A stretch of 64,000 nucleotides of DNA, taken from the NCBI GenBank assembly GCA_041650915.1, contig JBAZKE010000003.1, positions 21,226 through 85,225 of the forward strand, written 5' to 3'. Positions 3,001 to 48,800 of this stretch are shown one piece after another; position 1 is the first letter of the stretch; each line of letters opens with the position of its first letter. The DNA is from Patescibacteria group bacterium. Its GTDB lineage: Bacteria > Patescibacteriota > Patescibacteriia > UBA10025 > JAHIVO01. Under the pieces are notes generated by a model, which was not told the DNA's origin, made no database searches, and was given only the letters and a program-made list of their open reading frames with translations. The position numbers and the translations under genes are program-made.

Positions 3001-4595
3001 ACAGCCTATCCTCCGGTACCCCTGGATTCACCATTGACGCTGGCGGCGTACAGCGGCAGGATACTGACGGGGACGGCTGCCATCCTGTGCAGCTCCGGAA
3101 GCGCATTGTCGCCGGTGAAAGCTTCCTGTGCCCGCTCGCCGGAGCGAGCTGCATCGTGTGGGAAGCCATACCGATTAATTGCGTGGGCGTGAGGGACTGC
3201 GTCGGCGGATTCCTCTCGTTCGCGCCTGCTATGTACGGCAACCGGCTCCTGCGATACGGGTACCGGCATAACGACGATACGGGGGAACACCGTGAATCCG
3301 CGGACATCGTGGTTGATTTCTACCTGCGTGAAACATGCCAGGAGTACGTTAAGGTCGTGGATGATGACGGGTCAAATAAGGCGTGGTTCTCCCGGGTGAG
3401 CTCATCGAGCGACTACGTTGTTGCTGAAGGAGTGGCGGGCAGCCCCGAGTACGTGTACGGCACCGACTACCCTCCATTCGGCAGCGCAGTGCCCGCGCGG
3501 GAAAACTGCGAACCCAATGGCGGGTCGAATGACCTGCTCAATCCCGAGGCGTGGGACGCGAGCTGTGCAGAGCCTGGGTACCAGCCGCTCCTCGTGCAGC
3601 TGCCGTACCCCGACCTCCAGAACGCGCGCGGCGGCTCTCCGTTAGGGTACAATTATATGGATACGACTCCGCCAATACCGCCATCGCTGCAAACAACCCC
3701 GAGCGGCATGTGCATTACGGCACTCAGCCACTCGCGCAACGGGGATACGTGCAGCAATGTTTCAACGGATTGCTGTGAAAATTGGAATGAGACATTGGGC
3801 AGGTGTGAGGAGCTGGATTCCGAAAATCACCCGATTTATCCTAAGTGTGTTGGCTTCTCGACGCTTTCCGGCGAGATCGCGGGCGGGAACTGGGGAGCTC
3901 CGGCAATTGCGGATGGCGCCCTCCTGCGGTTATTCGCGTACGGATACGGGAAGTGGGGGCTGCACAGCAATATTTCACCAGACGTCGATCCTCCCGGCGT
4001 GTGCGTGGGCGGCAGCAATCCGGGTACGGGCTGCTCGGTTCCTGAGGATTGCACGGGCGGCGGGACGTGCAGTCGTATCCAGCACTACCACAGCAGGAGC
4101 GCTTGGGCATACCAGAATCCATTCAATACGATGGCGCCATGCACGAATAATATCCGCCCGAACAGCTACCCGAACGATTATTGCGGCGTAGTTCCTGAGG
4201 TTACGGTGGTCGCCGGCACGGGAGGCAACATGCAGCCTGACGTCAGCTACATCAATCTCGGGCCGGACGGGGGCGAGGTGCAGCTCAACCTCACCATCAA
4301 TGCCAATCCCGACCAGCTTCCGATACGGCTTATCGAGGTGGACTGGGGAGAGCCCGGGAAGGTGTACACGACGAGCGGCAGCTTCGGTTCAGGCACCCTC
4401 ACCTTGACGAACAATTACCGCACGCCCGGCACGCACGTCATACAGGTACGCGTGGTTGATAACTGGGATTGGTGCGGCATCGATGCTGACGGCGATGTTG
4501 ACTGCGCAGTTGATGATTGCCGGTACATGATTGACGGCGATGGGTGCGATCCGGAATACATTGATACGGAGATTCGCGTCAATGTCGGCAGCTAA
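1..4595 (+). CDS. Giant Cys-rich secreted or surface protein, 5'-truncated by the window edge. No stop lies in frame upstream of 33. It carries a dockerin-like Ca-binding repeat pair and several Cx2DADC knots.
   Basis: Continuous 4.6-kb ORF. Two ~22-aa segments DMNANGSIDIGDLTVLTNYLY and DVNADGRINEADLLYLNDNLY match the dockerin type I duplicated loop-helix pattern. Cys-rich motifs such as CETDADCAAPGIC and CEVDADCPVG recur. Cys content is high throughout. Confidence 0.7.
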   Translation, partial: SNAFYVDNIEMREVYDSLYRIRDSYASCSGYENCDRYTDVDRNTHYLKSFSRLCSEDKVGCEAFFDTQNSTETGATVYRLSSEPLTAARGDMNANGSIDIGDLTVLTNYLYINSDIVPTPADVADVNADGRINEADLLYLNDNLYFGGPFPTPAEAYPSRYIPADATITLVNDANKGCVAGDKGCSRLGSPTIDVDGGLSYYTDVYLKNNPDLYDSILCSYNDNMCEEYTTAGGAKLYFKNPGAQVCEYKRVVGQNTSGWYKVGTEQGVPDCPLYTGVCVGGADDGELCSSFDIRCDSGVCENRTELVPRPANGWVGLCSSAAVGCTEFRDPEEPTGCDATLEDGTGVEGLYDDCESYYYIDETIDQSSCNGLVAREEGCRLFNNTSSGDLVYDSAVSEDGSTPVLCTDPADCDSNTIVKVRKDRECGKWLECKMSERTSGSDGKVEELCLARYICSEMDEDTGHCIEDVDFEYVNQTYSSPAFVEEIGNYSGYVLAGLEWGLRCKNDPGVSCEVDADCPVGVDGNVIPNACQQQIVEGYLPYPAMEEVGAISISGDIVKSGDMGDSNYRVNQLLSLGLSWIDSNAIKYADRISQSDLTCAPPCPYSGELWPISWYPKEYGGSTASVWLAEESAENQIPSLNGNLDENNVLDVAPGGVWTGAYYNLGTAVNRGDEYGVTFSIRTAAPPLVDDRITIQIDYRNEADANIGYYTVGSIQANTLWDEYTFGPFTVGFDDNGDEMAFSSAWLSFVYTYEGTPGDEVPSEFFLDDVTMEPFLRANYDLRCRGGDDDGFKCETDADCAAPGICYDNTLIERDCRLYPSADAPYCEYVDENNTTHRGWQGYCLERDPGNPKYCLNWWPVDLLKGESSALSTLPRIESTLRTPMYMCLASHGNYLGDTNPFGGSYANIDGGGRYIYRETNQLTGSWIIEIISSCFAADWCEISGCDDYDALWNARNTPVTFAICRDDNNFAWRTPEIQIFMEDIEKVEFLTMYDHCNHSLSSGTPGFTIDAGGVQRQDTDGDGCHPVQLRKRIVAGESFLCPLAGASCIVWEAIPINCVGVRDCVGGFLSFAPAMYGNRLLRYGYRHNDDTGEHRESADIVVDFYLRETCQEYVKVVDDDGSNKAWFSRVSSSSDYVVAEGVAGSPEYVYGTDYPPFGSAVPARENCEPNGGSNDLLNPEAWDASCAEPGYQPLLVQLPYPDLQNARGGSPLGYNYMDTTPPIPPSLQTTPSGMCITALSHSRNGDTCSNVSTDCCENWNETLGRCEELDSENHPIYPKCVGFSTLSGEIAGGNWGAPAIADGALLRLFAYGYGKWGLHSNISPDVDPPGVCVGGSNPGTGCSVPEDCTGGGTCSRIQHYHSRSAWAYQNPFNTMAPCTNNIRPNSYPNDYCGVVPEVTVVAGTGGNMQPDVSYINLGPDGGEVQLNLTINANPDQLPIRLIEVDWGEPGKVYTTSGSFGSGTLTLTNNYRTPGTHVIQVRVVDNWDWCGIDADGDVDCAVDDCRYMIDGDGCDPEYIDTEIRVNVGS

Positions 4596-23206: not shown

Positions 23207-23683
23207 TCATCGAAGTTTGATTGCGGATGACGCGAGCACGATACTCGTGTCGATCTTCCAGCTGCCGGACATTGGCAGCTCCAGCGGGCTACTGACCCGG
23301 AAGGTGAGGCGCGCCTCGAATTTGTGTGACTCGCCCGGCTGTACGATAGCCACCGATGCGAAGCGCAGGATAGGATTGAGCGTAATCGAAGGCTCACCTT
23401 TAATTGCCTCAATCGCATCCCGAAAGGCATCGCGGATAGCGGGATGATCGTTGGCAAAGGCGCCAATGATCTCAAAGGTGACGGTCGGCTGGTGCGGTTG
23501 CACCTGTGCGATAAACAGCCCGGTATTTTTTTCGGACTGGATCGCGAATACGGGCGGGACATTGTGCCCTACGGTGCCGGCACCATTGACCGAAGCAGAG
23601 AGTGCCAGGCTTCCATCCACTTTCCCTCGGAGCGCGAGAGAGATTTCATCGGTGAGCTTTTGAAGCAGCTCAATGGGACTCAT
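23207..23683 (-). CDS. Hypothetical protein (~158 aa).
   Basis: Minus-strand ORF 23207..23695. The likely start is MSPIELLQKL at 23683. Confidence 0.5.
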   Translation of the reverse strand: MSPIELLQKLTDEISLALRGKVDGSLALSASVNGAGTVGHNVPPVFAIQSEKNTGLFIAQVQPHQPTVTFEIIGAFANDHPAIRDAFRDAIEAIKGEPSITLNPILRFASVAIVQPGESHKFEARLTFRVSSPLELPMSGSWKIDTSIVLASSAIKLR

Positions 23684-23810
23684 ATATGCCTCCACGAAAA
23701 CAGTGTTTATTTCACATGGTAAGGGCAGTGTGTATATTCAGAGCGGTTATTCGCTCGGCAGTACATCGTACCATAGGATTTAGGAATGTCAAAGCACTGT
23801 TGATTTGATA

Positions 23811-23838
23811 CAAAAAAGACCCCATGCATATTGGGGGT
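23811..23838 (-). terminator. Rho-independent-like terminator on the minus strand, downstream of the tRNA at 24023-24094.
   Basis: Minus-strand reading ACCCC-aatatgcat-GGGGT followed by CTTTTTTG. Confidence 0.4.
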
Positions 23839-24022
23839 GCCGGCGTTTTTTCGTATACGTGCCTTGTGTTTGTAAGCGGTGCAGGTAGGAATCGGTCACG
23901 AGTCGCGCTCCGCGCGCTCTCGACCCCGCCTCGCGCCACCTTCGGTGGCATGCTCCGGCTTTCGATTCCTGGCGCTCCGCAAGCAGTTGCGGAGCTCCTC
24001 GTTCAGATTCACTGCGTTCATC

Positions 24023-24094
24023 TGCCCTCGGCAGGAATCGAACCTGCATTTCAGGCTCCGCAAGCTTGCGTCCTATCCGTTGAACGACGAGGGC
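24023..24094 (-). tRNA. tRNA of 72 nt with no encoded CCA. The anticodon loop reads UUGCGGA, so the tentative call is tRNA-Arg(GCG) with G37.
   Basis: Acceptor stem GCCCTCG/CGAGGGC, D-arm GTTC/GGAC with a GG loop, T-arm GCAGG-TTCGATT-CCTGC, discriminator A. The anticodon stem has one A.C mismatch. Confidence 0.6.
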
Positions 24095-24124
24095 TCGATA
24101 TGTTTACAGTGGGCTGAAATGCTG

Positions 24125-24643
24125 CTACAGCTTCATGACCCGGCCGAGACCGTCTGAGAAAGATTCATTGACCTTTTCCGGATCTTCTTCGATGTATTTG
24201 AGCAGGATCTGCCTGATCTTTAAGGGATTTTGGCTCTCGAGTGCAATGCTGATCGACGGCCGCACGCCGGACTTAAATGAAAAGTATAGGTTTTTCACTT
24301 CAGGCGGATCGTATACGATCCAGAACTGCTTGATGGCATTCCATTCGTAAAATGTGCTTTCACCGAGCACGAGCCCATCTTCGGTCAGCTGGGCTTGCAG
24401 CCTTCTGGGTGATCTGCGGTACTCGAGCGCATAGACCCCGACCAAAATAACGAGGAGCAGGAGGAAGAGGTAATTTTGGGTGCTCACCGCGTAGATTGTA
24501 AGTGCGCAAACAATCGTAATTGCGACTGCGTACCACAGCTTACCGCGGAAGTATTTCGTGTATTCCGGAAATTCCCATGAGGCAAGGACTTCCCCAAAGT
24601 CGATTTTTTGATTGGGTGTTTTTCCTGCGTTGGATTGCGCCAT
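24125..24643 (-). CDS. Hypothetical two-TM membrane protein (172 aa).
   Basis: Minus-strand ORF with hydrophobic segments LWYAVAITIVCALTIYAV and LFLLLLVILVGVYAL. Confidence 0.55.
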   Translation of the reverse strand: MAQSNAGKTPNQKIDFGEVLASWEFPEYTKYFRGKLWYAVAITIVCALTIYAVSTQNYLFLLLLVILVGVYALEYRRSPRRLQAQLTEDGLVLGESTFYEWNAIKQFWIVYDPPEVKNLYFSFKSGVRPSISIALESQNPLKIRQILLKYIEEDPEKVNESFSDGLGRVMKL

Positions 24644-24837
24644 ATATCGTAGGTATTAACTTGTTATGTGGTCCCGGAGAGTGCCTCTATAGTATACAGA
24701 AAAACAGGAAAAAATTCACGTTTGGTCACTCATCGATTTCCTGACGGAAATCTAGGTCGATTCCGCCTCGCGGTGTTCGTTTTCCGCCAGGGGCGGTGGA
24801 AATTCTCGCTGGGACGCTCCAGGCTTTCTCTTTTTTA

Positions 24838-25285
24838 CGCTCCTTCGTTCACGTTGTTCACTTCGGAGGCGGAGGGATTCCGCTCCGCGCCGGGGCTCGC
24901 GGCTACTCCATTGCATTCCGCAGCATCGCTCGCCCTTCTCATCCCTACGCTCCACACGCAGGTGTGGAGCTCCGCTCCTTCGTTCACGTTGTTCACTTCG
25001 GAGGCGGAGGGATTCCGCTCCGCGCCTGGGCTCGCGGCTACTCCATTGCATTCCGCAGCATCGCTCGCCCTTCTCATCCCTACGCTCCACACGCAGGTGT
25101 GGAGCTCCGCTCCTTCGTTCACGTTGTTCACTTCGGAGGCGGAGGGATTCCGCTCCGCGCCTGGGCTCGTGGCTACTCCATTGCATTCCGCAGCATCGCT
25201 CGCCCTTCTCATCCCTACGCTCCACACGCAGGTGTGGAGCTCCGCTCCTTCGTTCACGTTGTTCACTTCGGAGGCGGAGGGATTC
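24838..25285. repeat. Tandem direct repeat of 3.3 units of 135 bp in the tRNA-Ser(TGA) trailer. Each unit begins with a copy of the last 16 nt of the tRNA.
   Basis: Units 24838-24972, 24973-25107 and 25108-25242 differ by 1-2 SNPs. A partial unit 25243-25285 overlaps the genuine tRNA 3' end. The shared motif is cttcGGAGGCGGAGGGATTC. Confidence 0.85.
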
Positions 25286-25355
25286 GAACCCCCGAGACCT
25301 TTGCGGGTCTAACGGTTTTCAAGACCGTCCCATTCAACCGCTCTGGCACGCCTCC
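25269..25355 (-). tRNA. tRNA-Ser(TGA), type II with a long variable arm, no encoded CCA.
   Basis: GGAGGCG acceptor, anticodon loop CUUGAAA, variable stem AGACC/GGTCT, T-arm GGGGG-TTCGAAT-CCCTC, discriminator G. Confidence 0.85.
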
Positions 25356-25625
25356 ATCTGTGCGAAAGGTACGGTATGTACCGTTCGCTTTTTGAATCAA
25401 ACCGCAGCATAAGTTGTAGTGCGGCCCATTTTTTATTAATGTATTGGTGGAGAGGGCGAGATTCGGTCACAAATAAATTTCCTGACGAAAATTTTTTACG
25501 ACCCCGCCTCGCGGCGCTCGCCTCCCCTCGGCAGGCTCGGGGAACTCGCGCATCGCTGCGGCTTTCTCATCTCGATGTCCCACAAGCAGTTGCGGGACTC
25601 CCTTCCTCATTCACTAACGTTCATT

Positions 25626-25716
25626 CGGAGAGGGCGAGATTCGAACTCGCGAAGGGGTTTTAAGGCCCCTTAACGGTTTAGCAAACCGCTGCCTTCAGCC
25701 ACTCGGCCACCTCTCC
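25626..25716 (-). tRNA. tRNA-Ser(GCT), type II, no encoded CCA.
   Basis: GGAGAGG acceptor, anticodon loop UUGCUAA, long variable arm AAGGGGCCTTAAAACCCCTTC, T-arm GCGAG-TTCGAAT-CTCGC, discriminator G. Confidence 0.85.
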
Positions 25717-25764
25717 TCGATTCATCGAGATGTATACGCTGCTCGGGTAAGGGAAAAAAATATT

Positions 25765-26493
25765 TTACGAGCCGCGAGCGATGACGAGGCCCCAGACAGC
25801 CCGTGCGCCCGCTTGCTTGAGCACCCCTGAGCACTCATGTAAAGTAGCGAGTGTCGTTGCTACATCATCTACCAGTATAGCATTTTTTCCTTTGATGCTG
25901 AAGGGATCTGCAACGGAAAATGCGCCGACGACATTTTGCAGACGTTGCTGCCTATTGAGTTGGGCTTGGGATTCAGTTTTTCTGGCTCTCTTTAGCAGAT
26001 GGGGGTACTGGGTAAGTGAGGAGTATTCGGCGATTACCGCACAGAGGAGCCCAGCCTGGTTAAAACCCCGCTCGAGAAACCGCTTTCGGTGGAGCGGAAC
26101 CGGAACCAATACCGTGCGCTGGTGACTGCTCAGTATACCGGCAGGCTTTGTTTTGTCAACAGCCTGGAGCGCGCGGAGGAGCTGCAGCCCGAGGAACTGT
26201 GCGAGCTCCTCGACGTATTTGTATTTCAGCAGGTGGATCGCCGACTGGATGAGCTTCTGTTCATACGGAGCCGCGACGATGAGCCCGTCGAGGCTTGAGG
26301 TACTGCGGCACTTCCCGCAGGTAGCCGGCGATCCGGGGATTCTGCAGATTGGGCAGCGCTGCTGCATGCCGCCGGTAACCTGCCGGGCGCATGCCGTACA
26401 GATCCAGGCGCCCTCGGCACCGCACCCGACGCACGATGCCGGAAAGAGCGTGTCGAGGACCGTTATTTTTAAAGTGTGCAGGATTGTGGACAT
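25765..26493 (-). CDS. comFC: ComF-family phosphoribosyltransferase (ComFC-like competence protein).
   Basis: N-terminal Cys4 zinc-finger pair CVGCG...CTAC and CPIC...CGKC. C-terminal PRTase motif ILVDDVATTLATL. Confidence 0.8.
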   Translation of the reverse strand: MSTILHTLKITVLDTLFPASCVGCGAEGAWICTACARQVTGGMQQRCPICRIPGSPATCGKCRSTSSLDGLIVAAPYEQKLIQSAIHLLKYKYVEELAQFLGLQLLRALQAVDKTKPAGILSSHQRTVLVPVPLHRKRFLERGFNQAGLLCAVIAEYSSLTQYPHLLKRARKTESQAQLNRQQRLQNVVGAFSVADPFSIKGKNAILVDDVATTLATLHECSGVLKQAGARAVWGLVIARGS

Positions 26494-36100: not shown

Positions 36101-36337
36101 GGCAGCTCATGGGCCGAACTGCCGCTGTCGATCACTCCTGATATCAATGAGCTGTCTGCCGTCACAATAGGGCCGGACGGCACCATATATCTCGGCGGTT
36201 CCCGATCATCAAGCATGGTCGTGCGGAGCAGCGGATTCGGTGCCGGTACGTACAGCTGTCCCGACGGCCACTTCATTAAGGATGTTCAGCGTAACTATGC
36301 AGGCGAAGTCATCCGGATTGAGTGCAGGGCACTCTAG
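33191..36337 (+). CDS. Large secreted protein (1048 aa). Signal peptide, Gly/Tyr-rich repeats, FDGxxxW beta-propeller repeats, six BNR/Asp-box repeats, and a C-terminal Cys motif.
   Basis: Asp-boxes STDRGDTW, SADDGQTW, TNNGGTTW, TADGGTTW, SVDGGSTW, ALDYGSSW. Repeats YDGTNLWLADG, FDGDYLWIL, FDGTYVWAA. CENDADCAGG. C-terminus CPDGHFIKDVQRNYAGEVIRIECRAL. Confidence 0.75.
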   Translation: MQTGWHKQQLVLKWAILGLFFCAISIVVFGTESTSATTLDPSGPPPEDNTTGFIDIGNEYQIKTGALRLGTDDRSAPFNYQLEVVGDGAEISNVVAENNLGVGQYDGRTCENDADCAGGMAMYCSYGKCRYDSLYVDSERDVVCFGPCLNASGSRVEVSGSGMHVENDAGYGMYATSSSDTAVYGSGTTYGVQGISSGSNNYGIWAINTIGTALEGTSTGVPYPAYSSVAGISTTGWGIYATNTNASGLWSGYFEGRVGSTRNVVGSKLVTTKPGVSLTPFTSAQELAEYGISSDGLRYYDGTNLWLADGNTLIKVRASDGFLLLRTALSGAPTDVIFDQEALWVTVSDGTVLRLDPVTGTAVCSLDLAAVAAPVGPLSNPLGIVYVKQREMNISRGQGTTYQHYWVTATGSAGAGAIVELTYEKRSGACAFVAGSAQEIVSASTSIGKMAFDGDYLWILAQDSVSREGYLVSVHASDGEAALFPDIVGSEPTDIVFDNSFLWVTNSLDDTLSRISLAGSHVCSIKDGYLWRSCSANLECAAAGLGQCFQVPIPYGLYDTADEPTYVAFDGTYVWAASDTNPTVSQFLAADPADRDDHTLSADANGLLFDGTNVWVSHDAGITKLFSGTGFGAADLGDTLTLQNAGPVVQQPGSISITDSAFIGQSLIADSELTVSDNVWADEQSGDVIRSDEWEIAGQWSGGGVLAVAVTGNGTVLAGDKYNGHIYRSTDRGDTWADTGSYGQWVWGILEAHDGMLYAATGDESGIGAQVYTSADDGQTWQMSTAVFPTAGNHAYECAETYFSSDWWVACGSGFDDYVWRTNNGGTTWIQSAALPGSGSDSPWALFSASDGYLYVASKWNSHVYRTADGGTTWETLADIPGVSGVYDLLEGSDGALYAATGCECATMEGHVFKSVDGGSTWLDVIDVTGDGMNDVYAIIESEPGVFYFTTRAEVAGPSFTAHVYRALDYGSSWAELPLSITPDINELSAVTIGPDGTIYLGGSRSSSMVVRSSGFGAGTYSCPDGHFIKDVQRNYAGEVIRIECRAL

Positions 36338-36341
36338 GCGT

Positions 36342-39300
36342 ATGAAGAAATTATTCCACAATCGAGCGGCAATCGTAGGTCTTACCGGCCTTTGCGTCGG
36401 CATCGGTGCGGTCGTTTTGGTCGTGACCGCGAGCGTGAGCATTGCCCAGGTAACATGGGAAGAACCGACATCCCAGCCGCCGGGCGGCAATAAATACGCG
36501 CCGCTCAATACCGGCCCGGGCGACCAGGCCAAGCAGGGGGGGCTGCTGCTCGACCCTTTCTATAACTATATCGGGCCAATGCCCACCATGAGCTATCCGC
36601 TCGAGGTCAGGGGGCCGCAGAATGTTAGCATATCAAGCCTCGAGGTGCCCTCGGGGCAGGATACCGGGCAACTGACGGTTGATACCGATACGCTGTACGT
36701 TGATGCAGTCAGCCACCGGGTCGGTTTCGGTACGGCCGCGCCGTCATCGCTTGCTGAGGTGAGCGGCGGTTCGCTCGATATCGGGAGCGCCGCTTCGCCC
36801 ATTGCCGCTGATCCGGCGCTCTACGTTGCCAGCCAGTCGGCAGCCGGCTTATACGCAACTTCAACAGCTAGCGGTGCGGTAGCGGCGATCTACGGCGTGA
36901 GCGGCGCGCAGCCTGGCGTATTCGGGTATAACCTCGGGACTGGCGCCGGCATCAGGGCGGACAGCGGTTCTTCGTCAGCGGTTGTCGGCACGACAGATGC
37001 GCCGCTCAGTACGGGGAGTACCGTGCAGGCCGGCGTGTACGCGGTCGGCAAAGGGCTCGGGGCATGGGCCGGTTACTTCGGCCAGCGGGTGTACGGGTCG
37101 GATGCGGTTGTCGGACGCCAGTTCATCGAATCCCAGCCCGCTGAGTCGCAGGTTCCCTATACGCAGACATGGGAAGTTCGGCTATCCTCCGATTCGAAAA
37201 AAATAAATCCCGTGCACCTGCTGTACGCAAACGGATACGTCTGGGTTGCCCAGGAAGACTCGGTCGTGTATGTCGTCAATCCCCTCAATGGGTATTTGGT
37301 AGGGGAGATCGAGCTTTCCGCGGATTTTGAGAATGACCCGGGCCATCCGGTAAACGCCAACCACGGGATCGGAAATATGGTGTACGCAGAGGGTTATATA
37401 TGGGCTCTCGGCGATACGTGGGACGAACCGATCGTATCCCGGTTTACGCCCGATCCGGATATTGCCGGAAGCTCAGTCCGGCAGTTCATCCTCGGCACGG
37501 CCTTCGACGATGACGATGTGCGCGACCTCGTGTACGATGACATCACGCCCGGCGGCCCATTCCTGTGGATAGCGAGCAGTGATGGGCCCGGTGAGGGCGA
37601 CCAGCATTCAATCGTCCGTTTGACTATCAATGAATCAAGCCCGGACTATGGTGATTTTATTGAAGTGCTGGCGCCTGACGCGAGCTGCATTACCCTGGAT
37701 GCCGCACTGTGCACCGATCGGCTCGATAACAACGGTGACGGCACGATCGACCACGGACTGTGTGTGTTCAGTGCACCGATTGATGTTGCGGAGTGCAGTG
37801 TGGCAGGCGGTACATGGACGCCCGGTACGTGCACGGATTCACGGTACGCCGATCAAACGTCTTGTGAGGGCGCACCCGCAGACAAGTACGGGTATGCGCC
37901 CCGGTGGGTGCCGGGAACGTGCAGCACCCCGGTGTGCTCACAGGTTGAGTGTGAAGCTGCCAACCACTGTTCAGGCGGCACGTGGACCGAAGGGTCTGGC
38001 TGCTCGGACGCGAATTGCTTGACGCAGGCAACGTGCGGGCTTGGCTCGGGCTGCGGCGAAACATGGACACCGCTTGAGACAGACTGCAATCCATATACTG
38101 CGACCCCCGGTGCCTCCGTGTATGATCCCGATGCGCCCGATGTGTCTCCGGATACGGACGAACGGCTCATATACCGGCAGCTCGGCGTGCCGTTCGGCAT
38201 TGCGTTTGACGGCACTGACGTATGGACGGTCGGGGGCATGCTCACCTCTGATGCATCTTCGGGAGAAGCAGTCGTAAAAATTAATGCCGCTGACCCTGAA
38301 AATGCCAGTCTTCATGACTACTACTGCATCGGGCCGGCACGTGATGCGCGGGATATCACGTACGATAGCGGCAATGACCAGCTCTGGATAGGGCAAGCGC
38401 CGTCCTGGCACAAGCCTGGCACCTTTCATGGCTTGAGCCGGTTTGATATGGCAGCGGGAAAAATTGCGGAGACATACCTGAATTCGGTTTACGGTTTTGG
38501 CGTCAATATAAATAAGGTAGAGTATGACGACATCTCAGCCGGCGGCCCCTGGGTATGGGCAGCTGCTGCGTACAATGCACCGCTCAACAAGTTCCATATC
38601 AACGATGAAGAAATAAAACACCAGTTTATTCCTCCCGGAGGCATCCCGGATTTTTCGATTGACCGTGAAACCGCAGGCGGCCCGTACGCGTGGTCGTCGC
38701 TGTACTATGCGAGTGCCGTCGGCAGAAGCCTGGTCAATGAGCCCTATACGACCGTGGTATATACGCCCAAGGGGGTCGGCAGGGAGGATATTGCGTTCGA
38801 CGGGGAATTTATCTGGACGGCAAACGGGTACGCCCAGTCAATCAGCAAGTACCGCTCAAGCGACAGCGAAAAGGTTGCAGACTACGGCGGGTTTCCGAGT
38901 GACGTGCAGCATATAATGTACGACGGTTCATACTTGTGGGCAGTCATATCGGGCGGCAGCCCGCTTGCCAAGGTCGATCCGCGGACAGGTAATATTATTG
39001 AAATATTCACGTACGCAGGCGAGCATCAGGTCGGGTGGGATTGGGCTTTTGACGGCACCAATCTCTGGCTCTCCCTCGAGCACAAGAATATGGTTCAGCG
39101 CATCGATCTCACGTCGTGCAGCGCCGGCACGTGCGGCGTCACGCAGTATGCAAATATTTTTCAGCCGTACGAGCTTGAGTTTGACGGAACCTACGTCTGG
39201 ATTACCCACACCAGCCAAGCCTCGAGTGACGTCAGCCTGAGCGATAGCCTGACGCGCATCAGGGTTTCTGACGGTGCGGTTGAAGGCCCGTTCATCGTGC

Positions 39301-40559
39301 TCGATGACGAGCACGGGGGCAATATCACCGCGCTCGAGTACGACGGAACCTACCTGTGGATCGGCACCAGTATCGCGGATTACTACGGCAACAGCGTTTT
39401 TAAACTCGATATTGAGCGTTGCGGGGAGGCGCCTGATTACGTTGATGCATGCCCGGTCGCAGGTCGGTATAAAATTTACCACGATTCCGGCGTATGCTCA
39501 GTGAGCAAGACGTACTGCACGGCATCTAACGACTGCCCGGCAACGGAGTACTGCAGCAATATCAGGCCGGCCTGTACGTACGGTGATAAGACGGATGTTG
39601 TGTATTCGAGAGTTGATCAGATGCTCTTTGACGGAATGAACATGTGGGTCACGAATATGACACCGACCGATTGCAGCTCATTACGGGAGTGCAGCACGGA
39701 TAATTCGTACGACGAGGACGGTGACGGCCTCACGGGGAATAGTGATCCGAACTGCGAGCGTACGTATGATGCGGTTTCCTATGACCACCACGAGCGGAGC
39801 ATCTGCGATGACGGGATTGATAACGATAATGACGGCACGTGCGACTGGAACGGATGCGGCGGATTGCCGGCTGACAGCGAGTGCGTCGTTGCCGGCTACC
39901 CGAATGACCTGCAGCTTGATACCGAGGGTGCGTCGCTGTTTACTGACGGCAAGGGGCTGCTCGAGTGCAGGGACGGGCTCGACAATGACGGCAATGGCTT
40001 GTGCGACTGGGACGGCGCGGCCGGCTCGCCCGGGTGCAGCGGCAAGCCTGATCCGGGATGCGATGTGCCGAATGACGCGAGCGAAGCAGCGCGGCCTAAT
40101 GACGCACATCTCACGAAGATCAACGCGGCTACCGACGAGGTTGTCGAGAGTATCCTCTATGGGGCGTACTGCAGTTCGAGCGGGCTGGCGTACGATGGCA
40201 CGGATCTTTGGATCGCGAACTACGCGTGCGAATCTGGTTATGAGTACAGCGCAGCCGCGTACTACACCCTTTATCAGTATTATTCCGGTAATGGGCGGGG
40301 AGTCACGGATATTATAAGTTCCGTTAACCTATCGGGAATTGATGCTGCTGATCCGCAGCAGGGGGATATTGCACTCGGCGGCAGCGCTACGTTTGGCGGA
40401 TCTTTGTATGTAAACGGTGATATCGTCGTGCCGGGAAATACGTGGGCGGGGACTGCCGACCATGATCAGGCATTCGGTGACGGATGCGCCGAAGGTGAAT
40501 TTGTAAAGGGGATCGATTTGACAGCCGGCAGCGAGTCGCTCCAGTGCCGGCCACTATAA
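36342..40559 (+). CDS. Large anchored or secreted paralog (1405 aa), Cys-rich, with FDGTxxW repeats and the C-terminal Cys motif.
   Basis: ATG at 36342, 4 nt after the upstream stop. Its N-terminal module, Gly/Tyr-rich repeats and FDGxxxW beta-propeller repeats match 33191..36337. C-terminus CAEGEFVKGIDLTAGSESLQCRPL. Confidence 0.75.
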   Translation: MKKLFHNRAAIVGLTGLCVGIGAVVLVVTASVSIAQVTWEEPTSQPPGGNKYAPLNTGPGDQAKQGGLLLDPFYNYIGPMPTMSYPLEVRGPQNVSISSLEVPSGQDTGQLTVDTDTLYVDAVSHRVGFGTAAPSSLAEVSGGSLDIGSAASPIAADPALYVASQSAAGLYATSTASGAVAAIYGVSGAQPGVFGYNLGTGAGIRADSGSSSAVVGTTDAPLSTGSTVQAGVYAVGKGLGAWAGYFGQRVYGSDAVVGRQFIESQPAESQVPYTQTWEVRLSSDSKKINPVHLLYANGYVWVAQEDSVVYVVNPLNGYLVGEIELSADFENDPGHPVNANHGIGNMVYAEGYIWALGDTWDEPIVSRFTPDPDIAGSSVRQFILGTAFDDDDVRDLVYDDITPGGPFLWIASSDGPGEGDQHSIVRLTINESSPDYGDFIEVLAPDASCITLDAALCTDRLDNNGDGTIDHGLCVFSAPIDVAECSVAGGTWTPGTCTDSRYADQTSCEGAPADKYGYAPRWVPGTCSTPVCSQVECEAANHCSGGTWTEGSGCSDANCLTQATCGLGSGCGETWTPLETDCNPYTATPGASVYDPDAPDVSPDTDERLIYRQLGVPFGIAFDGTDVWTVGGMLTSDASSGEAVVKINAADPENASLHDYYCIGPARDARDITYDSGNDQLWIGQAPSWHKPGTFHGLSRFDMAAGKIAETYLNSVYGFGVNINKVEYDDISAGGPWVWAAAAYNAPLNKFHINDEEIKHQFIPPGGIPDFSIDRETAGGPYAWSSLYYASAVGRSLVNEPYTTVVYTPKGVGREDIAFDGEFIWTANGYAQSISKYRSSDSEKVADYGGFPSDVQHIMYDGSYLWAVISGGSPLAKVDPRTGNIIEIFTYAGEHQVGWDWAFDGTNLWLSLEHKNMVQRIDLTSCSAGTCGVTQYANIFQPYELEFDGTYVWITHTSQASSDVSLSDSLTRIRVSDGAVEGPFIVLDDEHGGNITALEYDGTYLWIGTSIADYYGNSVFKLDIERCGEAPDYVDACPVAGRYKIYHDSGVCSVSKTYCTASNDCPATEYCSNIRPACTYGDKTDVVYSRVDQMLFDGMNMWVTNMTPTDCSSLRECSTDNSYDEDGDGLTGNSDPNCERTYDAVSYDHHERSICDDGIDNDNDGTCDWNGCGGLPADSECVVAGYPNDLQLDTEGASLFTDGKGLLECRDGLDNDGNGLCDWDGAAGSPGCSGKPDPGCDVPNDASEAARPNDAHLTKINAATDEVVESILYGAYCSSSGLAYDGTDLWIANYACESGYEYSAAAYYTLYQYYSGNGRGVTDIISSVNLSGIDAADPQQGDIALGGSATFGGSLYVNGDIVVPGNTWAGTADHDQAFGDGCAEGEFVKGIDLTAGSESLQCRPL

Positions 40560-42804: not shown

Positions 42805-45800
42805 ATGCCAAAGGCGACTAAAAATTTACTCTTCATCCTTACCATCGCCACTGCGGCTGCGGTGCTCGGCGGCGGGCTGCTCTGGCTCGGGTATGCGCTC
42901 GTGCGCGAGCCTGCCGGCTCAGTGCCCGTCGCGGTCGCGGAAGACCCCGAGACGCTCATGGATGAGCAGGCCGAGCAGGGGGCGATCAACTATACGCATG
43001 CGGATAACGGAGACGGCACCTCGACGATGACGTTCTCGCTTTTTGATACGCAGTACCTGGCCGACGATGGCGCGTACGCGCCCATCAGTACGGAGGTCCT
43101 GGAATCAGCGGGCGACTACGCGTTTGAGAATACCGAGAACATATTCAAGACGCACTTCCGCGGGAGCGCTGCCGTGGACAGCGCCGTCGAATTCGCGATC
43201 GGCGAGCGGTCGGTGGGCATCAGCTTCGTCGGCGCCAGCGAATCCGCGCCCGTCGCAGCGGGAAACACGGTCACGTACCCGGGCGTGTATGGCGGCATGG
43301 ACGCCCGGTACACGCTCCTCCCGGAGCAGCTCCTCGAAGAGCTCATCGTGACCGAGCAGGTAGAGGTCAGCCGCATCAGCCAGAAGCTTATCCTGAGCAA
43401 CGTGTACTACAAAGAGCAGCCGGACGGTTCGCTCACTTTCCATGATGCAGACACCAGGCGGATCGTGTGGTATACACCGGCTCCGGTCATGTATGAGATT
43501 CCGACCGAGGAAAACAGCGAGGCGGGCTCGAGCTCCGCCCTCCACTACGAGGTGGAAGAGGTTGAAGGCGGCTTTATCGTGCACAAGGTGATCGATGCTG
43601 AGGGTATCGAGTGGCTCAAGGCTGCTTCGTACCCGCTCGTGATCGACGGAACATTTACCCGTGACACCTGGCCAACCTCGTCGGGCTCAATGTATGGGGA
43701 GATTGCGTGGGAGGATCCGTTGTGGACGGTCGACCCTGGAGGCAGAAGTTTTTGGACAGAGGGTTACAATTGGGAGCAGATGGCGTACGTTACCTTCCTG
43801 CAGGACGGGACGATCGAGCGCCGGGCATACTTAGTGTTTGATACGAAGAGGCTGCCGGATTCGATATGGCCGATACAAGCAACGCTCCAGGTGCGCAACC
43901 TTCAAAATAATTTTTACGGAGAAACGTGGCGTGATGACGAGTATTACATGGGCGCTTTCGCATGCCAGTACGGGTGGTACGTCCTCGGCTCCGACGATTG
44001 GGAAGGGTGCAAACGCTTGACAAGTGACATTACTAATGAGGATGACGACAGCGTTGAGCTCGTGGATAACTGGCCTAGTCATGCGTGGCATACGTTTAAC
44101 CTCAATCCGGAATCAATCGGTGCGGATGTATGGACCAACGTCGTGCTCGATACGTACCGCGTCGGAAATCTTGACGACAATAATTACGAGCGCAGTATGG
44201 TAGTCGGCGTCGGCCCGAATGCCGGCCCGACTTCCGGGCCCGACATGTGGGCGTATGCGCCAATACTGACGGTCACGTACAAAGGCCCGCCCCCGCCGCC
44301 AAACCACTTTGAGATCACCGGCAATACGCAGACGAGCGTTGCGCTCGAGTGGCAGGATGAGAGCACGACCGAAGACGGGTGGATCATCCAGTACGGCCCC
44401 ACTGCAGCCGGGCCGTGGACAGACCTGTGCCATCCGCATACGGGCAGCGGTTCTATCCCGAGCACGGGCGTTTGCGTCGACTTCAGCTCGGATTGGGACT
44501 GCGATATAGAGGTAACGAAGGCGGGGAGCGGCGACGATACGCCAGCTGACCCGGACGACTATATGTGCCGCCTGACGCACACCCCCCTTTCGCCGAATAC
44601 GCACTACTACTACCGGATCGTGACGTACGAGCCTGCACCTTTTGGCGAGAACGGCGCTGTGTTCTCGTCGGTCAACCGCAGGAGCGTCACCACCTCGCAT
44701 CTCAATGCGAGTGGCGAGCTGTACATCGGCGGTTCACGGTTGGCGAATGGCGAGACGCACGGTGCGCTCGAGCGGCGCCGGTCCATAAACGGGCGACTCG
44801 ACCGCACGTTTGCCAACCTGCAGGGCGATGTGGCGTGCTGCGACACGGCAGGGTGTGCGGGATATGTTGATTCCGGACAGGGATGGATTCTCTTCAACTG
44901 GGATACTTTTTGGAGCTTCAATACGATTCTCGACATTCCGAGCGGCGCCGGCTCAATACAGCCCGATCTGTACGCGCTCGGCGGCGCACACTGGGATTAC
45001 GATAAGCTCATGCGTTTTGACACCATGAATGACCACGAGGGAGAGTGGGAGTGGAAAAACTCAGTGAACTGGGGAGCGTACCAGTCCAAGATGTTTCCCA
45101 TATTGGAGGAAAACACGCTCATCGTAACCGGCGCCCGTGAAAATTATAATGCTTCTTATCCTACTTTGGGCTGCGGCCGGACCGGGTACTGCTGGAAGGT
45201 CAAGGCTCAGCTCATGCTGAAGTCCTGCAGTGCGACGCTCGGGTACCGTTATGACTGGGACTACAGCGCGACAGGCCTTAATGGGGATGGCTACTACAAT
45301 GGCGAGATGTGGGTGCCGGCTGGCCAGAATCTGTACGATAGCGTATCGGACGCGGACTATATGTACCTCGCCGGCACGCCGTATGGCCTGGCGGACGGGT
45401 ATCTCCGGAAGCACGATAAGTACACCGGGTACCTGTGCAACGGGACTGACGCGAACCATTGCGGCATCGGGAACGGGTGGGGCGACGCAGACTCCGGCAC
45501 GATCACGATTCCTGAGAGCAGCGGTATCAGATACCTCGCGATTGATAGTACGAGCCTGTATTTGCTCGGCTCCCGTGACGATGGCATCTCCTGGCAGATT
45601 GAGAAGCGCAGCCTGGCTACGGGTGACCGCGTGACCGCGTTCAGCGGAGATGGCGTCTTTGTCTCTATTATGGGTTCACCTTCACCGTCGGACATCATTG
45701 TCGATAATAACTACCTGTACGTTATCGGCCGAGAACGGCCCTCGAGCATCTACCAGTGGCGCATCGAGAAGTACGACAAGAACACGGGTGACCGCTGCGA

Positions 45801-48800
45801 TGGCGGGTCCGGGCACTGCGGCAATGTCGAATTCGGGTCAAGCGGCATCATTTCATTCAGCAGCGATGTGGCAGGTGATGCGTATACGCCGGTGTCAATC
45901 GAGCAAGACGATAACCACCTCTACATCTCTGGAGTAGCGAATTCATCGTACACTGCGTGGCGCATTGAGAAGCGCGTCAAAGATACCGGTGCACTCGGTA
46001 ACAAGATGGATATTCTCCACGGGGCGTCGCAGTTCGGAATCCACGACGACTGGTCATATCCGGAAGACGCCTGGACGCTCGCCGAGGCGGTTGCGGCACC
46101 CCCGGTATTTGTCGATCCGCAGCCGGACAATTCCGAGGTGCACGTACTGTATGAGAACGGCGGTTCAGCAGGCCCGGGCAGGTTCCCGGACGATCCGCTC
46201 GACGGCGATCCGGGCACGACCCAGTACTGCCTCGGGCTCTACATCGAGGACTGGCCGGCGGATCCTGGTTTTGAGACGCCTCCGACGCCAGATACTTTTT
46301 TATCCATATGGAAAGACCTTGCGGCATACGGCTATTTTCCGCAGACGCTCATTGCTGGTACTGGCGGCTTCATGTGGTGGGGCCCTGTTTGTTATACGGC
46401 GGCCGAATGGCACGGTCTGCCGTTCTCATCCGTATACCCGCGGCTCGAAACCCCGATACGTGCGCCGCTCAATATGCTTGCTGACAGTACTGAGATCGCT
46501 CCGCTGCCTCCGGACCAGGAAATGACAGGCGCGTTTTTCGCGAAGAACGGAGACGGTGAGGTGGCGGACCCGCTGCCGAGCGGATGGGCTACCACGAGGA
46601 CGCGCGCCCGCAATCCTCTGCAGCCCCTCGCGACCGCGCTCGATGCCCATACGGTCCAGATTACGATGCGCAATAATAGTGCAGGATCGGTGTCTAGAAA
46701 TCCTGCGTGGACAGACTACGCACTCCAGAACGCAGATACCGGGCAGTATCTTGATCCGGCTACTGGTTTATTCGTAGACGATCTGCCAATCAACGAGGAC
46801 GATATTTGGTGCGACCTTTCTTCCCAAGAACCTGATAGTACGTGCAATTGGGGGTACCCGAGCCCTGACAGCGTTGGGACGGTCACGTTCAACAATGCGC
46901 AGCCTGCGCTGTGCTATGAATTGCGCGCAAAGTCGAGGAATAAAGATAAAGTCGAGGGTGAGTTTTGGGGCAGGTGCAATGAGTATATGACCGACGGAGG
47001 CGGATATACGTGCTGGACCGACAAGGCGTGCGTGCCGTGGAACTGCAATATCGAAAACCATACTACGTTTAATAATAGCCAACCGGCGCTCTGTGCATCT
47101 GAGGGCGGCGTCTGGGAGGAAAACTGGGATTCCGATTCGTGCGTTGATCAGAGTGATCCGGATTATGAAGACTGGTACAATTTAATATGGTCGACTTCAG
47201 TGAATGTATGCGTTCCATCCGCGCCCGCTGATGGCGTCAATGTCGAGTGCGGGTATGACGAAACGGACGGATACTACTGCGACCTGGGGATTATCGATAG
47301 TGAGAATCCGGCGAATTATTGTGAAGGTCATCCGGAATGCACCGATCAAGCCAGTTGCGAGAATGTCGCAGGGTGCAATTCTACCTGGCATGTCAGCGTG
47401 GTCTACGGAATACAATACTGCCTGGATAATGTGCCGCTCAGTGATTGCTTCAGCGTACCGGGGCACGGCTGGAATGATGCGGTTTTAGAAACGGACCAAA
47501 AGGTACACCGGTTTGCGTCAGAAACGCTGCAAACATGGCTCGCGTGCTCGCAGGAGAATAACGTGCAGGCATACCGCGTCCGTACGCGGGGGCAGAATGG
47601 AGTATGGTCTGCATACACTGCTCCGATCGAAGTGGACATCGGCAGCGGCTGGGATACGTTGCCTCCGTGCCCTGTCACCTGGGCAACGCCTCTGCACTCA
47701 GAAAATGCGGCGGATGGCTTTGGTTATAAAATTACCTGGCAGTGGCTCCAGCCTGACAATTGGGACGCCGACTGTTTGGATAAGGATTGCATGTACTACA
47801 ATTTGTATGATGATGCGATGCGGTGCGTCGTTGGAGGATCGGACGCAGTGCCTGATGCGGACGAGCTCTGCCCTTTGACGCCGCGGCCTTCCATTGCCGA
47901 CTGGATTGATCCGTCATTTTCGCAGTATATGTACTGTGATAACTTACTATGCACCCGGCTCCTGAAGCAGAATACGGAGTACGCTGCCCGCGTGCAGGCG
48001 GTGCGGGTTGATAGGTATAATGAAACGCAGCGCATCCGCGGCGGCGAGCCCACGTGGTATATGAAGCCGTTTGAGGAGTATGCGACCGTTTATACTTCCA
48101 TTGACGCGCCTGCCGGCATAACATTCAATAATGACGGGCTGTCAGCGGAAACGTTGCTTATGCGCTGGACAGGGCTGCTCGCAGGAGTCAGCCAAGCCGA
48201 CTACCGCGGCGAGTCCGGCGTGAAGTACTACCAGACGCTCGAAGGCGCTCCGGACAATATAGGCGATCCTGCTTTTATGGGATTCGTGAAAGACGGCGAT
48301 CCGGCCGTTTGGCTCGATATATGGGATAGTGGCCTGATGCCGAACCGCAAGTACTGCTACCAGGCCGAGGCATGCAATGGCGACTGCGATATACTCGGCG
48401 ATCCCACTGATGTGAGCGCGCGGTCTCCGGTAGCGTGCCAGTATACGCTTGCTGACCAGCCGGCGCAGCCCGTGCTCCGCCGAAATGAGGGGGAGACCGA
48501 AATCACCCTTAGCATCCGTACGAATGCCGATGACCGCAATTCCCACGGCGAGTTCATTGACCCGTACCAAAATCCGGATACTGACTATGCGCTGTGCGTG
48601 ACCAGCTACGATGATATCGGCAATAAGGTCTGGTCGCACTACGCAGACCCGAACTGGGATGCGGGAGACACTACGACCGCATTCATCGATAAGAGCTTTT
48701 GCAGCGATCCGGCGTGCGATAATGAGGCAGACTGCCTCGGATCCGGCCCTGGGCAGTGCAGTGAACTCGTGCTGCAGACCTGGACCGAGCGCCCGACCTG

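Follow-up and report, generated by a model that had tools for sequence, protein, structure and literature searches.

Gene-less trailer elements downstream of Patescibacteria tRNA genes, with a predicted pseudo-tRNA fold and an organization resembling that of RtT

The window analyzed here, a stretch of 64,000 nucleotides from contig JBAZKE010000003.1 of a Patescibacteria group bacterium, carries three tRNA genes on its minus strand, tRNA-Ser(gct), tRNA-Ser(tga) and tRNA-Arg(gcg), each of which is followed by a structured trailer element. These elements belong to a large family in the ultra-small Patescibacteria bacteria that is not catalogued in Rfam; its members are 110-250 bp long and gene-less, harboring neither an integrase nor any other gene. 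On balance, we lean towards reading them as elements of the same kind as E. coli RtT (RF00391; rttR): an RNA that would form a pseudo-tRNA, would be co-transcribed with the tRNA and probably released by tRNA-processing enzymes, and would have spread and been amplified by way of a repeat running from the T loop to the 3' end of the tRNA. The elements sit in the trailers of tRNA genes and of transfer-messenger RNA (tmRNA) genes, in host genomes that have very little spare non-coding DNA. If the reading is right, a conserved structured RNA with more than 100 copies has been left uncatalogued in a major and poorly understood radiation. A first-pass annotation of the locus had seen a single module of the 140-180-nt element, a hairpin, and had overlooked its conserved core, its directly repeated tRNA 3' end and the flanks of the hairpin that are complementary to this repeat.

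Alignment of the three trailers reveals that their homology reaches far past this hairpin, termed hairpin A. Starting at the tRNA, the modules are a spacer (GAACG..AGUGA), a segment X'a, hairpin A, a segment X'b, the junction GA(U/A)GAGAAAGCC, a variable hairpin (P2), the stretch CGCGAGGCGGRRUCG, a long hairpin (P3) with GUGACC at its end, and X_down. P2 of the core contains a G-A/G-A internal loop, which was compared with a kink-turn and whose bulge length does not match. P3 is composed of 16 bp with a bulged A, and GUGACC is the 3' end of the core. X_down is a direct repeat of the tRNA's own 3' end, beginning in the T loop (GAAUC...); the repeat, X, is typically 18-19 nt long (positions 57 to 74/75). 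The complementary segments flank hairpin A, X'a matching the acceptor strand and X'b the T-stem strand of the tRNA 3' end. The pairing of X' amounts to -18.8 kcal/mol with the cognate tRNA 3' end and -14.4 kcal/mol with X_down, as compared to -9.9 kcal/mol with mismatched partners, the comparison favoring the functional tRNA end being biased by its two to three extra T-loop bases. In elements that possess hairpin A, the value for X'a against its own acceptor 3' strand is -9.05, against -4.32 for the control. Compared with a miniature inverted-repeat transposable element, defined by terminal inverted repeats and a target duplication that is short and fixed, the sole inverted repeat of these elements is X'/X, of which X is target-derived, and the duplication ranges from 7 to ~110 nt.

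Pairing of both X'a and X'b with X would give the trailer a tRNA-like fold. When folded alone, the tRNA-Arg trailer, the tRNA-Ser(gct) trailer and the 135-nt unit behind tRNA-Ser(tga) all yield an acceptor-like stem, hairpin A, and a T-like stem bearing the core, with z-scores of -4.7 (Arg), -3.1 (Ser(gct)) and -1.0 (the 135-nt unit, of the type-B form described below), the last of these lying within the range of shuffled sequences. In the predicted fold, hairpin A substitutes for the D and anticodon arms, and the core for the T loop, while the spacer would then look like an inter-tRNA spacer. Neither ARAGORN nor the Rfam tRNA, tmRNA and YrlA models make a call on the element; only the three true tRNAs are called. 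A third left-hand module was observed in three loci of other genomes (L015, L122 and L004): its local hairpins, either one or two in number, carry the loop GCGAAU(A/G)C(N)UGGAGC and immediately precede the core, and it stands where the X' pairing with X_down would otherwise be.

The coordinates of the locus are gathered in Table 1. Two of the elements carry a type-A core. The repeat of tRNA-Ser(gct) displays an asymmetry, as the functional, upstream copy of the tRNA 3' end has no CCA and the X_down copy carries ACCA. The trailer of tRNA-Ser(tga) has instead been multiplied as a type-B array, in which each 135-bp unit encompasses, in this order, a spacer, X'a, hairpin A, X'b, a short core (GAGAAGGGCG...GGAGCG) and the tRNA 3' end GAAUCCCUCCGCCUCCG. 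The array amounts to 3.3 copies with 99% identity, and a second assembly of the same locus (L001) contains exactly one 135-bp unit fewer (2.3 units versus 3.3). Such differences in unit number between near-identical assemblies, seen for the window and L001 as well as for two other loci (L152, with three units, and L153, with one), may stem from population variation or from assembly collapse. Fragments of tRNA ends, pseudo-tRNA folds and collapsible tandem repeats can mislead both tRNA annotation and assembly.

Table 1. tRNA genes, trailer elements and associated features of the locus (positions within the window)
Feature	Position	Strand	Description	Basis
tRNA-Arg(gcg)	24023-24094	-	Host of element 1	ARAGORN; Rfam tRNA, 58.6 bits
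Element 1, spacer	23996-24022	-	GAUGAACGCAGUGAAUCUGAACGAGGA, with GAACG..AGUGAA motif	Trailer alignment; motif recurs in other genomes
Element 1, hairpin A	23974-23995	-	9 bp, CUGC loop	Hairpin of the first-pass annotation
Element 1, core	23880-23974	-	Type A	R1 56.7 bits, E 5.6e-14; fold
Element 1, X'b/P1 5' strand	23964-23970	-	Part of core
Element 1, P2	23928-23959	-	Part of core
Element 1, P3	23894-23925	-	Part of core
Element 1, GUGACC	23894-23899	-	Part of core
Element 1, X_down	23878-23893	-	Partial tRNA-Arg 3'-end repeat: GAUUCCU identical, remainder diverged
Intrinsic-terminator-like hairpin and U tract	23820-23836	-	Would close the tRNA-Arg/element transcription unit	Consensus scan
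tRNA-Ser(tga)	25268-25356	-	Host of the tandem array	ARAGORN and Rfam
Type-B tandem array	24838-25285	-	3.3 units of 135 bp; hairpin A at 24949-24970, 25084-25105 and 25219-25240
Decayed type-A core	24710-24839	-	Distal end of the array; GGGGUCG changed to GGAAUCG, P1 lost, hairpin A deleted	R1 10.3 bits
tRNA-Ser(gct)	25626-25716	-	Host of element 2	ARAGORN and Rfam
Element 2, spacer	25607-25625	-		Sequence comparison and fold
Element 2, X'a	25599-25606	-	GGAAGGGA	Pairs with acceptor 3' strand of the repeat
Element 2, hairpin A	25577-25598	-	9 bp including one G.U, CUGC loop
Element 2, core	25451-25577	-	Type A	R1 51.2 bits, E 2.1e-12; fold
Element 2, P2	25504-25561	-	Part of core; long
Element 2, P3	25465-25503	-	Part of core; AU-rich, GUCA loop
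Element 2, GUGACC	25465-25470	-	Part of core
Element 2, X_down	25445-25464	-	Exact 16-nt tRNA-Ser(gct) 3'-end repeat GAAUCUCGCCCUCUCC (25449-25464), then ACCA

Family members were collected by searching 185,579 species genomes for the pattern CGCGAGGCGGRRTCG-N(15-40)-GTGACC, which matched at least 120 loci. About two thirds of the matches listed are metagenome-assembled genomes of Patescibacteria, including Saccharibacteria, Paceibacterota/Parcubacteria, Kaiserbacteria, Nomurabacteria, Moranbacteria, Falkowbacteria and Taylorbacteria; about one third, from Actinobacteria, Sphingomonas and the like, fall in G+C-rich coding DNA by chance and were discarded. R1, a covariance model built on the core whose E-values are rough, identifies among these listed matches at least 101 cores in 84 Patescibacteria loci. 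Of these 101, 68 lie at most 300 nt downstream of a tRNA or tmRNA gene and on the same strand. All tRNA isotypes are represented, the three tmRNA genes present all carry a core, and tandem cores are common.

Alignment of 35 short-type cores resolves a three-way structure, composed of P1 (X':X_down), P2 and P3. In this alignment 91.1% of the cells form pairs, as compared to 78.1% in shuffles and 37-48% when the partners are slid, and both partners differ in 143 cells, for 44.5 in shuffles. Such double changes are seen at each of the seven pairs of P1 and at ten pairs of P3. A G.U pair occurs without variation, and a second pair is found as G-C and as G.U in 14 sequences each, a distribution that fits only the tRNA-sense strand. 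Rfam 15 returned only tRNAs and spurious tRNA-derived matches, for the window at gathering thresholds, for 23700-25800 and the L152 region at E ≤ 10, and for three strong core loci at E ≤ 1; literature searches found no prior description in Patescibacteria. The core motif matched six times in 2.9 million viral contigs, all by chance in G+C-rich coding DNA and none a true copy. All-versus-all clustering of 1358 open reading frames (ORFs) from the 84 loci retrieved only housekeeping neighbors as recurrent genes, and no recombinase, reverse transcriptase, nuclease, HUH or TnpB protein.

Hairpin A, for which the first-pass annotation had proposed three versions at 23975-23994, 25577-25598 and 24950-24969, is indeed found at all three places, and the last version recurs every 135 bp (pattern matches at 24953-66, 25088-101 and 25223-36). 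Each stem can be extended to 9 bp with a closing G-C pair (Table 1). Written on the tRNA strand, the hairpins are GCUCCGCAA-CUGC-UUGCGGAGC, GUCCCGCAA-CUGC-UUGUGGGAC and GCUCCACAC-CUGC-GUGUGGAGC, and they start 27 nt past the tRNA end in all three trailers. The A.C mismatch ascribed to the Ser(gct) copy was correctly located but is no mismatch: on the tRNA (minus) strand it is a G.U wobble, which suggests that the tRNA strand is the one that folds. The proposal of a selected structure maintained by covariation is borne out on that strand, as 20 distinct stems keep the loop, with double-sided changes at eight of the nine pairs and three sense-strand wobbles. The spacer motif reported as common to the trailers is also real, and recurs in other genomes as GAACGAAGUGA. 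The three hairpins are not mere paralogous copies confined to this locus, since copies exist in many other genomes. The evidence resides in the diversity of stems at a fixed position; the figure of 98.9% paired positions is circular, because the instances were picked for being paired.

In 1.28 Mb of Patescibacteria sequence, both strands taken together, 57 hairpins possess a CUGC loop and a stem of at least 6 bp. Of these 57, 19 end no more than a few bases from the start of an R1 match, ~13 nt ahead of the AGCC junction, so that 19 of the 104 cores considered carry one, for ~0.3 expected by chance from the density of CUGC hairpins elsewhere. Across all loci examined, the loop context AA[C/U]UGCUU was found in 28 hairpins, to which several different right-hand modules are attached; where an upstream tRNA is called, they mostly begin 25-32 nt past its end. 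Hairpin A is an optional left-hand module and no universal signal.

The surroundings of the window's locus are conserved in 80 metagenome loci selected via the neighboring ComF-like protein, whose gene order is ComF, tRNA-Ser(gct), tRNA-Ser(tga), tRNA-Arg(gcg). Three of them (L152, L153 and L154) harbor a type-B element after the orthologous tRNA-Ser(tga), with the architecture of the window's 135-nt unit: a GAAGUGA spacer, X'a, hairpin A with a UUGC loop, X'b, a short core (GAAGGGCG...GGAGCG) and the repeat. L152 contains three tandem units of 123 nt and L153 a single one. In the closest relatives (L129 and L155) only remnants are left, ending in a Ser(gct)-type 3' end. A separate observation concerns the interval between tRNA-Ser(gct) and tRNA-Ser(tga) in these two loci (L129:6120-6268 and L155:5977-6110), which resembles the 5' half of a tRNA-Ser (GAGAGGUGCCUGAGU...GGUUGAAAGGGACGGUCUUG) with hairpin-sized insertions at the D-loop and anticodon-loop positions; it is conserved in both and receives no tRNA call.

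The way in which the elements adjoin their targets suggests how they arrived. By eye, CCA follows X_down and not the functional copy in at least 8 of 29 loci, and the reverse was never seen; a script flags 3 of the 29. As the distal copy keeps CCA, X_down looks like the displaced original gene end. The same arrangement characterizes tRNA-targeted islands, which restore their target gene and have a displaced piece of it at their far end (PMC4383910). The target range extends beyond tRNA genes to tmRNA, to the 3' end of topA in four genomes, where the last 22 codons and the stop are duplicated downstream and are decaying, and to a 5S rRNA gene in antisense. A diversity-generating retroelement was considered for the topA repeat and rejected, the differences not being adenine-specific. 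In the 5S rRNA case (L004, ~900-1250), a diverged partial 5S copy of ~45 nt was noted on the far side of the core, part of the region being N-masked.

Nested and composite arrangements also occur. In L038 an older tRNA end (X1) precedes the repeat of the present host, and two copies of the entire element, 4.6 kb from each other, enclose an island. This 4.6-kb island (L038:1-4896), bounded by two full core elements, carries two ORFs that read into tRNA-end sequence and have a related C terminus (..GEKFGT..L..IY..LVTL), one of them being an integrase fragment (phrog_95, E 9e-8). In L036, four cassettes follow tRNA-Ala and the core is present only at the distal junction. The boundaries of these cassettes (L036:5080-7780) are each made up of a tRNA 3'-end copy, the same terminator and a TTGACT-17-TATAAT promoter, and every cassette carries small ORFs (62 aa, a 183-aa membrane protein, a DnaJ-type zinc-finger protein), an accretion that looks integron-like.

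Around the elements of the window, Pfam identifies ClpC, the ComF-like protein, RecG, RadA and unknowns. Two minus-strand ORFs between the tRNA/element units, of 172 aa (24125-24643) and 162 aa (23207-23695), have no significant Pfam match; the former stands between the Ser(tga) array and tRNA-Arg. ORFs of 143-214 aa that run across the 135-bp repeats and the tRNA (24668-25395 on the plus strand, 24752-25266 on the minus strand) are most likely repeat artefacts. Farther away, the plus strand contains very long ORFs of 4951, 1520 and 1439 aa (42805-57660, 33-4595 and 36240-40559), and type-IV-secretion-like genes (VirB4/TraG-type ATPase, pilin-like) are located at ~12-19 kb; together they may reflect large surface proteins.

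The sequence of events that would account for these features starts with transcription. The element stands between the tRNA and the first terminator and would thus be transcribed within the tRNA precursor; as the only terminator-like site on that strand follows the whole Arg element, it is probably co-transcribed with the tRNA. Once released, the trailer would fold with X'a:X as acceptor-like stem, hairpin A as an arm, X'b:X as T-like stem and the core in the place of the T loop. The nucleases of tRNA maturation may then cut at the real tRNA and at its mimic, leaving a discrete RNA, as reported for RtT; the earlier suggestion of a small trailer-derived RNA comes close to this. The element would arrive and multiply by recombination in the repeat spanning the T loop to the 3' end, which, as in islands that target tRNA genes, would regenerate the tRNA and displace its original 3' fragment; the repeats could subsequently give rise to tandem arrays.

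Several points weigh against this RtT-like reading. Transcription and processing are things we infer from position and shape only. Many members possess neither hairpin A nor X'a, and their P1 is only 5-10 bp long, so that full tRNA mimicry holds for a subtype and not for the whole family. The copies at the topA 3' end and in antisense to 5S rRNA are not tRNA-like, and argue that insertion at the DNA level, not RNA function, sets the location. The type-A core was not found in 470 kb of the syntenic relatives, with their 52 tRNA genes; the family is therefore patchy, and this patchiness, together with decayed copies such as the one at 24710-24839 (10.3 bits), would be more readily expected of a selfish element than of an RNA that the cell needs. 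The likeness to RtT is one of plan and not of model: the RtT model (gathering score 45 bits) has no match at E ≤ 10 in 23700-25800 or in L152, as compared to 133-138 bits for the E. coli units, and R1 in turn gives RtT units only 5-6 bits, on the right strand and in register. Lastly, the loci were gathered by the core motif (CGCGAGGCGG), which makes motif conservation partly a matter of construction, and the pair counts ignore phylogeny.

The alternatives differ in how much of the element they account for. The first-pass annotation considered hairpin A by itself as a tRNA 3'-processing or transcription-termination signal, and its constant distance of 27 nt from all three tRNA ends, as well as its conserved loop and covarying stem, would agree with such a role. 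This is nevertheless very unlikely. Hairpin A is not followed by a U tract (the sequence continues with GCCAGGAAUC or AUCGAGAU) and the consensus scan makes no terminator call there; the sole terminator-like site on the tRNA strand lies at 23836-23820, past the whole Arg element. A general processing signal is contradicted by the occurrence of the hairpin in only 19 of 104 family members, the others having unrelated hairpins or none, and by its absence behind the tRNAs of the syntenic relatives, while X'a and X'b on both sides designate it as an internal arm of a larger fold. Nor does it serve as the recombination site that had also been proposed, the repeat junctions coinciding with the T loop and with the 3' end of the tRNA. 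Still less probable is that the elements are inert scars, leftover att (attachment site) arms of islands that decayed in place and whose structure is unselected. The direct repeats of tRNA ends, the decayed copy at the distal end of the array and the rearranged loci are what scars would leave, but the core is nearly invariant, P1 and P3 covary across Patescibacteria classes, and the same modules are found next to dozens of distinct targets. A TnpB/Cas12-type guide RNA, with the core as scaffold and X_down as a 3' guide drawn from the flank, is the least credible of all: a scaffold ending in GUGACC does directly precede target-derived sequence, but no gene for a nuclease or transposase, tnpB included, adjoins the elements or recurs near them, pairing with X' takes up the initial 7-17 nt of the supposed guide and would hide its seed, and an intact matching target ~150 nt upstream would expose the element's own locus. 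A retron, a group I or II intron and a self-cleaving ribozyme were rejected as identities from the sequence, in which there is no reverse transcriptase and no Rfam ribozyme match and which is too small.

The most serious alternative, which we nonetheless regard as rather unlikely, is a non-autonomous mobile DNA element, a miniature island akin to a cis-mobilisable element, moved by a trans-acting site-specific recombinase at an att site running from the T loop to the 3' end, with the core as a folded single-stranded or protein-bound attP like that of CTX-type phages and the RNA without a role. The regenerated target, the displaced fragment and the CCA on the distal copy all speak for it, as do the classic nature of the targets (tRNA, tmRNA, and the 3' end of an essential gene with its diverged last 22 codons displaced), the nested repeats, the island with an integrase fragment adjoining an element, the cassette array at tRNA-Ala, the patchy distribution, the decayed copies and the single copy antisense to its 5S target. 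The order X_up-R-X'-loop-X_down would moreover be expected if a folded X':X stem recombined with a duplex target. Against it stand the lack of any recurrent recombinase, reverse transcriptase, HUH or TnpB gene nearby, the zero copies in 2.9 million viral contigs and the very small size that circles of 130-250 nt would have. As X and X' match dozens of tRNAs, retargeting would be needed for every copy, and we know of no mechanism for it. The sense-strand G.U pairs and the high conservation of sequence across classes fit an RNA at least as well. The pseudo-tRNA RNA and the mobility of the DNA are compatible and not exclusive. A bolder and more doubtful proposal is that the elements and E. coli RtT might be gene-less genetic parasites of tRNA genes, whose structured single strand (X'-core-X) would display a replica of the T arm and acceptor end of the host tRNA and direct its own integration into the T loop of that tRNA. 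Were this true, target recognition would be programmed by nucleic acid and not by protein, which would explain how one core came to stand behind dozens of tRNAs, tmRNA and topA with matched X and X'.

Among the known systems, the islands at tRNA and tmRNA genes, with their tyrosine integrases and gene-less derivatives, share with the elements a target that is split and regenerated with a displaced 3' fragment, a repeat of 16-21 nt running from the T loop to the 3' end, the use of tmRNA and of protein-gene 3' ends, and tandem accumulation at one site. They differ in that no integrase is found inside the elements, a single integrase fragment occurring in one neighboring island, and in that the whole element is a conserved structured sequence, each copy carrying the complement of its repeat. 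In CTX-type elements, the integrating form is a folded single strand of DNA, in which two target-site copies in inverted orientation, ~90 nt apart, form a stem that mimics the duplex target; integration leaves the order target copy, element, inverted copy, loop, target copy, and tandem arrays are common. The order of parts in the elements described here would be similar. CTX-type elements are complete phages that rely on XerCD and the dif site. Mimicry of tRNA has been described for the bacterial Y RNA YrlA (PMC4201824). In tmRNA, YrlA and viral tRNA-like structures, as in the elements, an acceptor-like and a T-like helix are built from distant 5' and 3' segments and a foreign structure replaces the arms; unlike in these RNAs, the stems of the element copy whichever tRNA is its neighbor, and a core of 63-100 nt replaces the T loop.

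The closest parallel is RtT, which, according to a report cited by a later paper, is freed from the transcript of the tyrT operon as the tRNAs are processed (PMC4986893, citing Bosl and Kersten 1991). RtT differs from the elements in that it possesses neither hairpin A nor X'a, in its inner helices, in a repeat that includes the encoded CCA, and in being known from Proteobacteria and not from Patescibacteria. The common plan is nonetheless extensive. RtT and the elements are both located directly 3' of a tRNA gene, within its operon, and both are multiplied in tandem, the E. coli tyrT-tyrV region comprising 3.1 units of 178 bp. In both, the unit ends in a repeat of the tRNA 3' end that starts in the T loop, ~19 nt long in RtT, where the units end with AAUCCUUCCCCCACCACCA, the tRNA-Tyr 3' end. 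In both, the complement of this repeat closes the fold (GGGGAAGGAU in RtT) and is followed by the junction GAUGAGAA; in the Rfam RtT consensus, GgGaaGGAU-GAGAA...AUCCuuCcC..CCA, the helix GgGaaGGAU:AUCCuuCcC closes and GAGAA comes next. A stretch of the type-B units (CGAAGGGCG..AGCGCGCAGCGC) also resembles RtT. If the RtT-like reading holds, the Patescibacteria family would provide a second and far more diverse example of the plan behind a 45-year-old puzzle, and would open it to comparative analysis.

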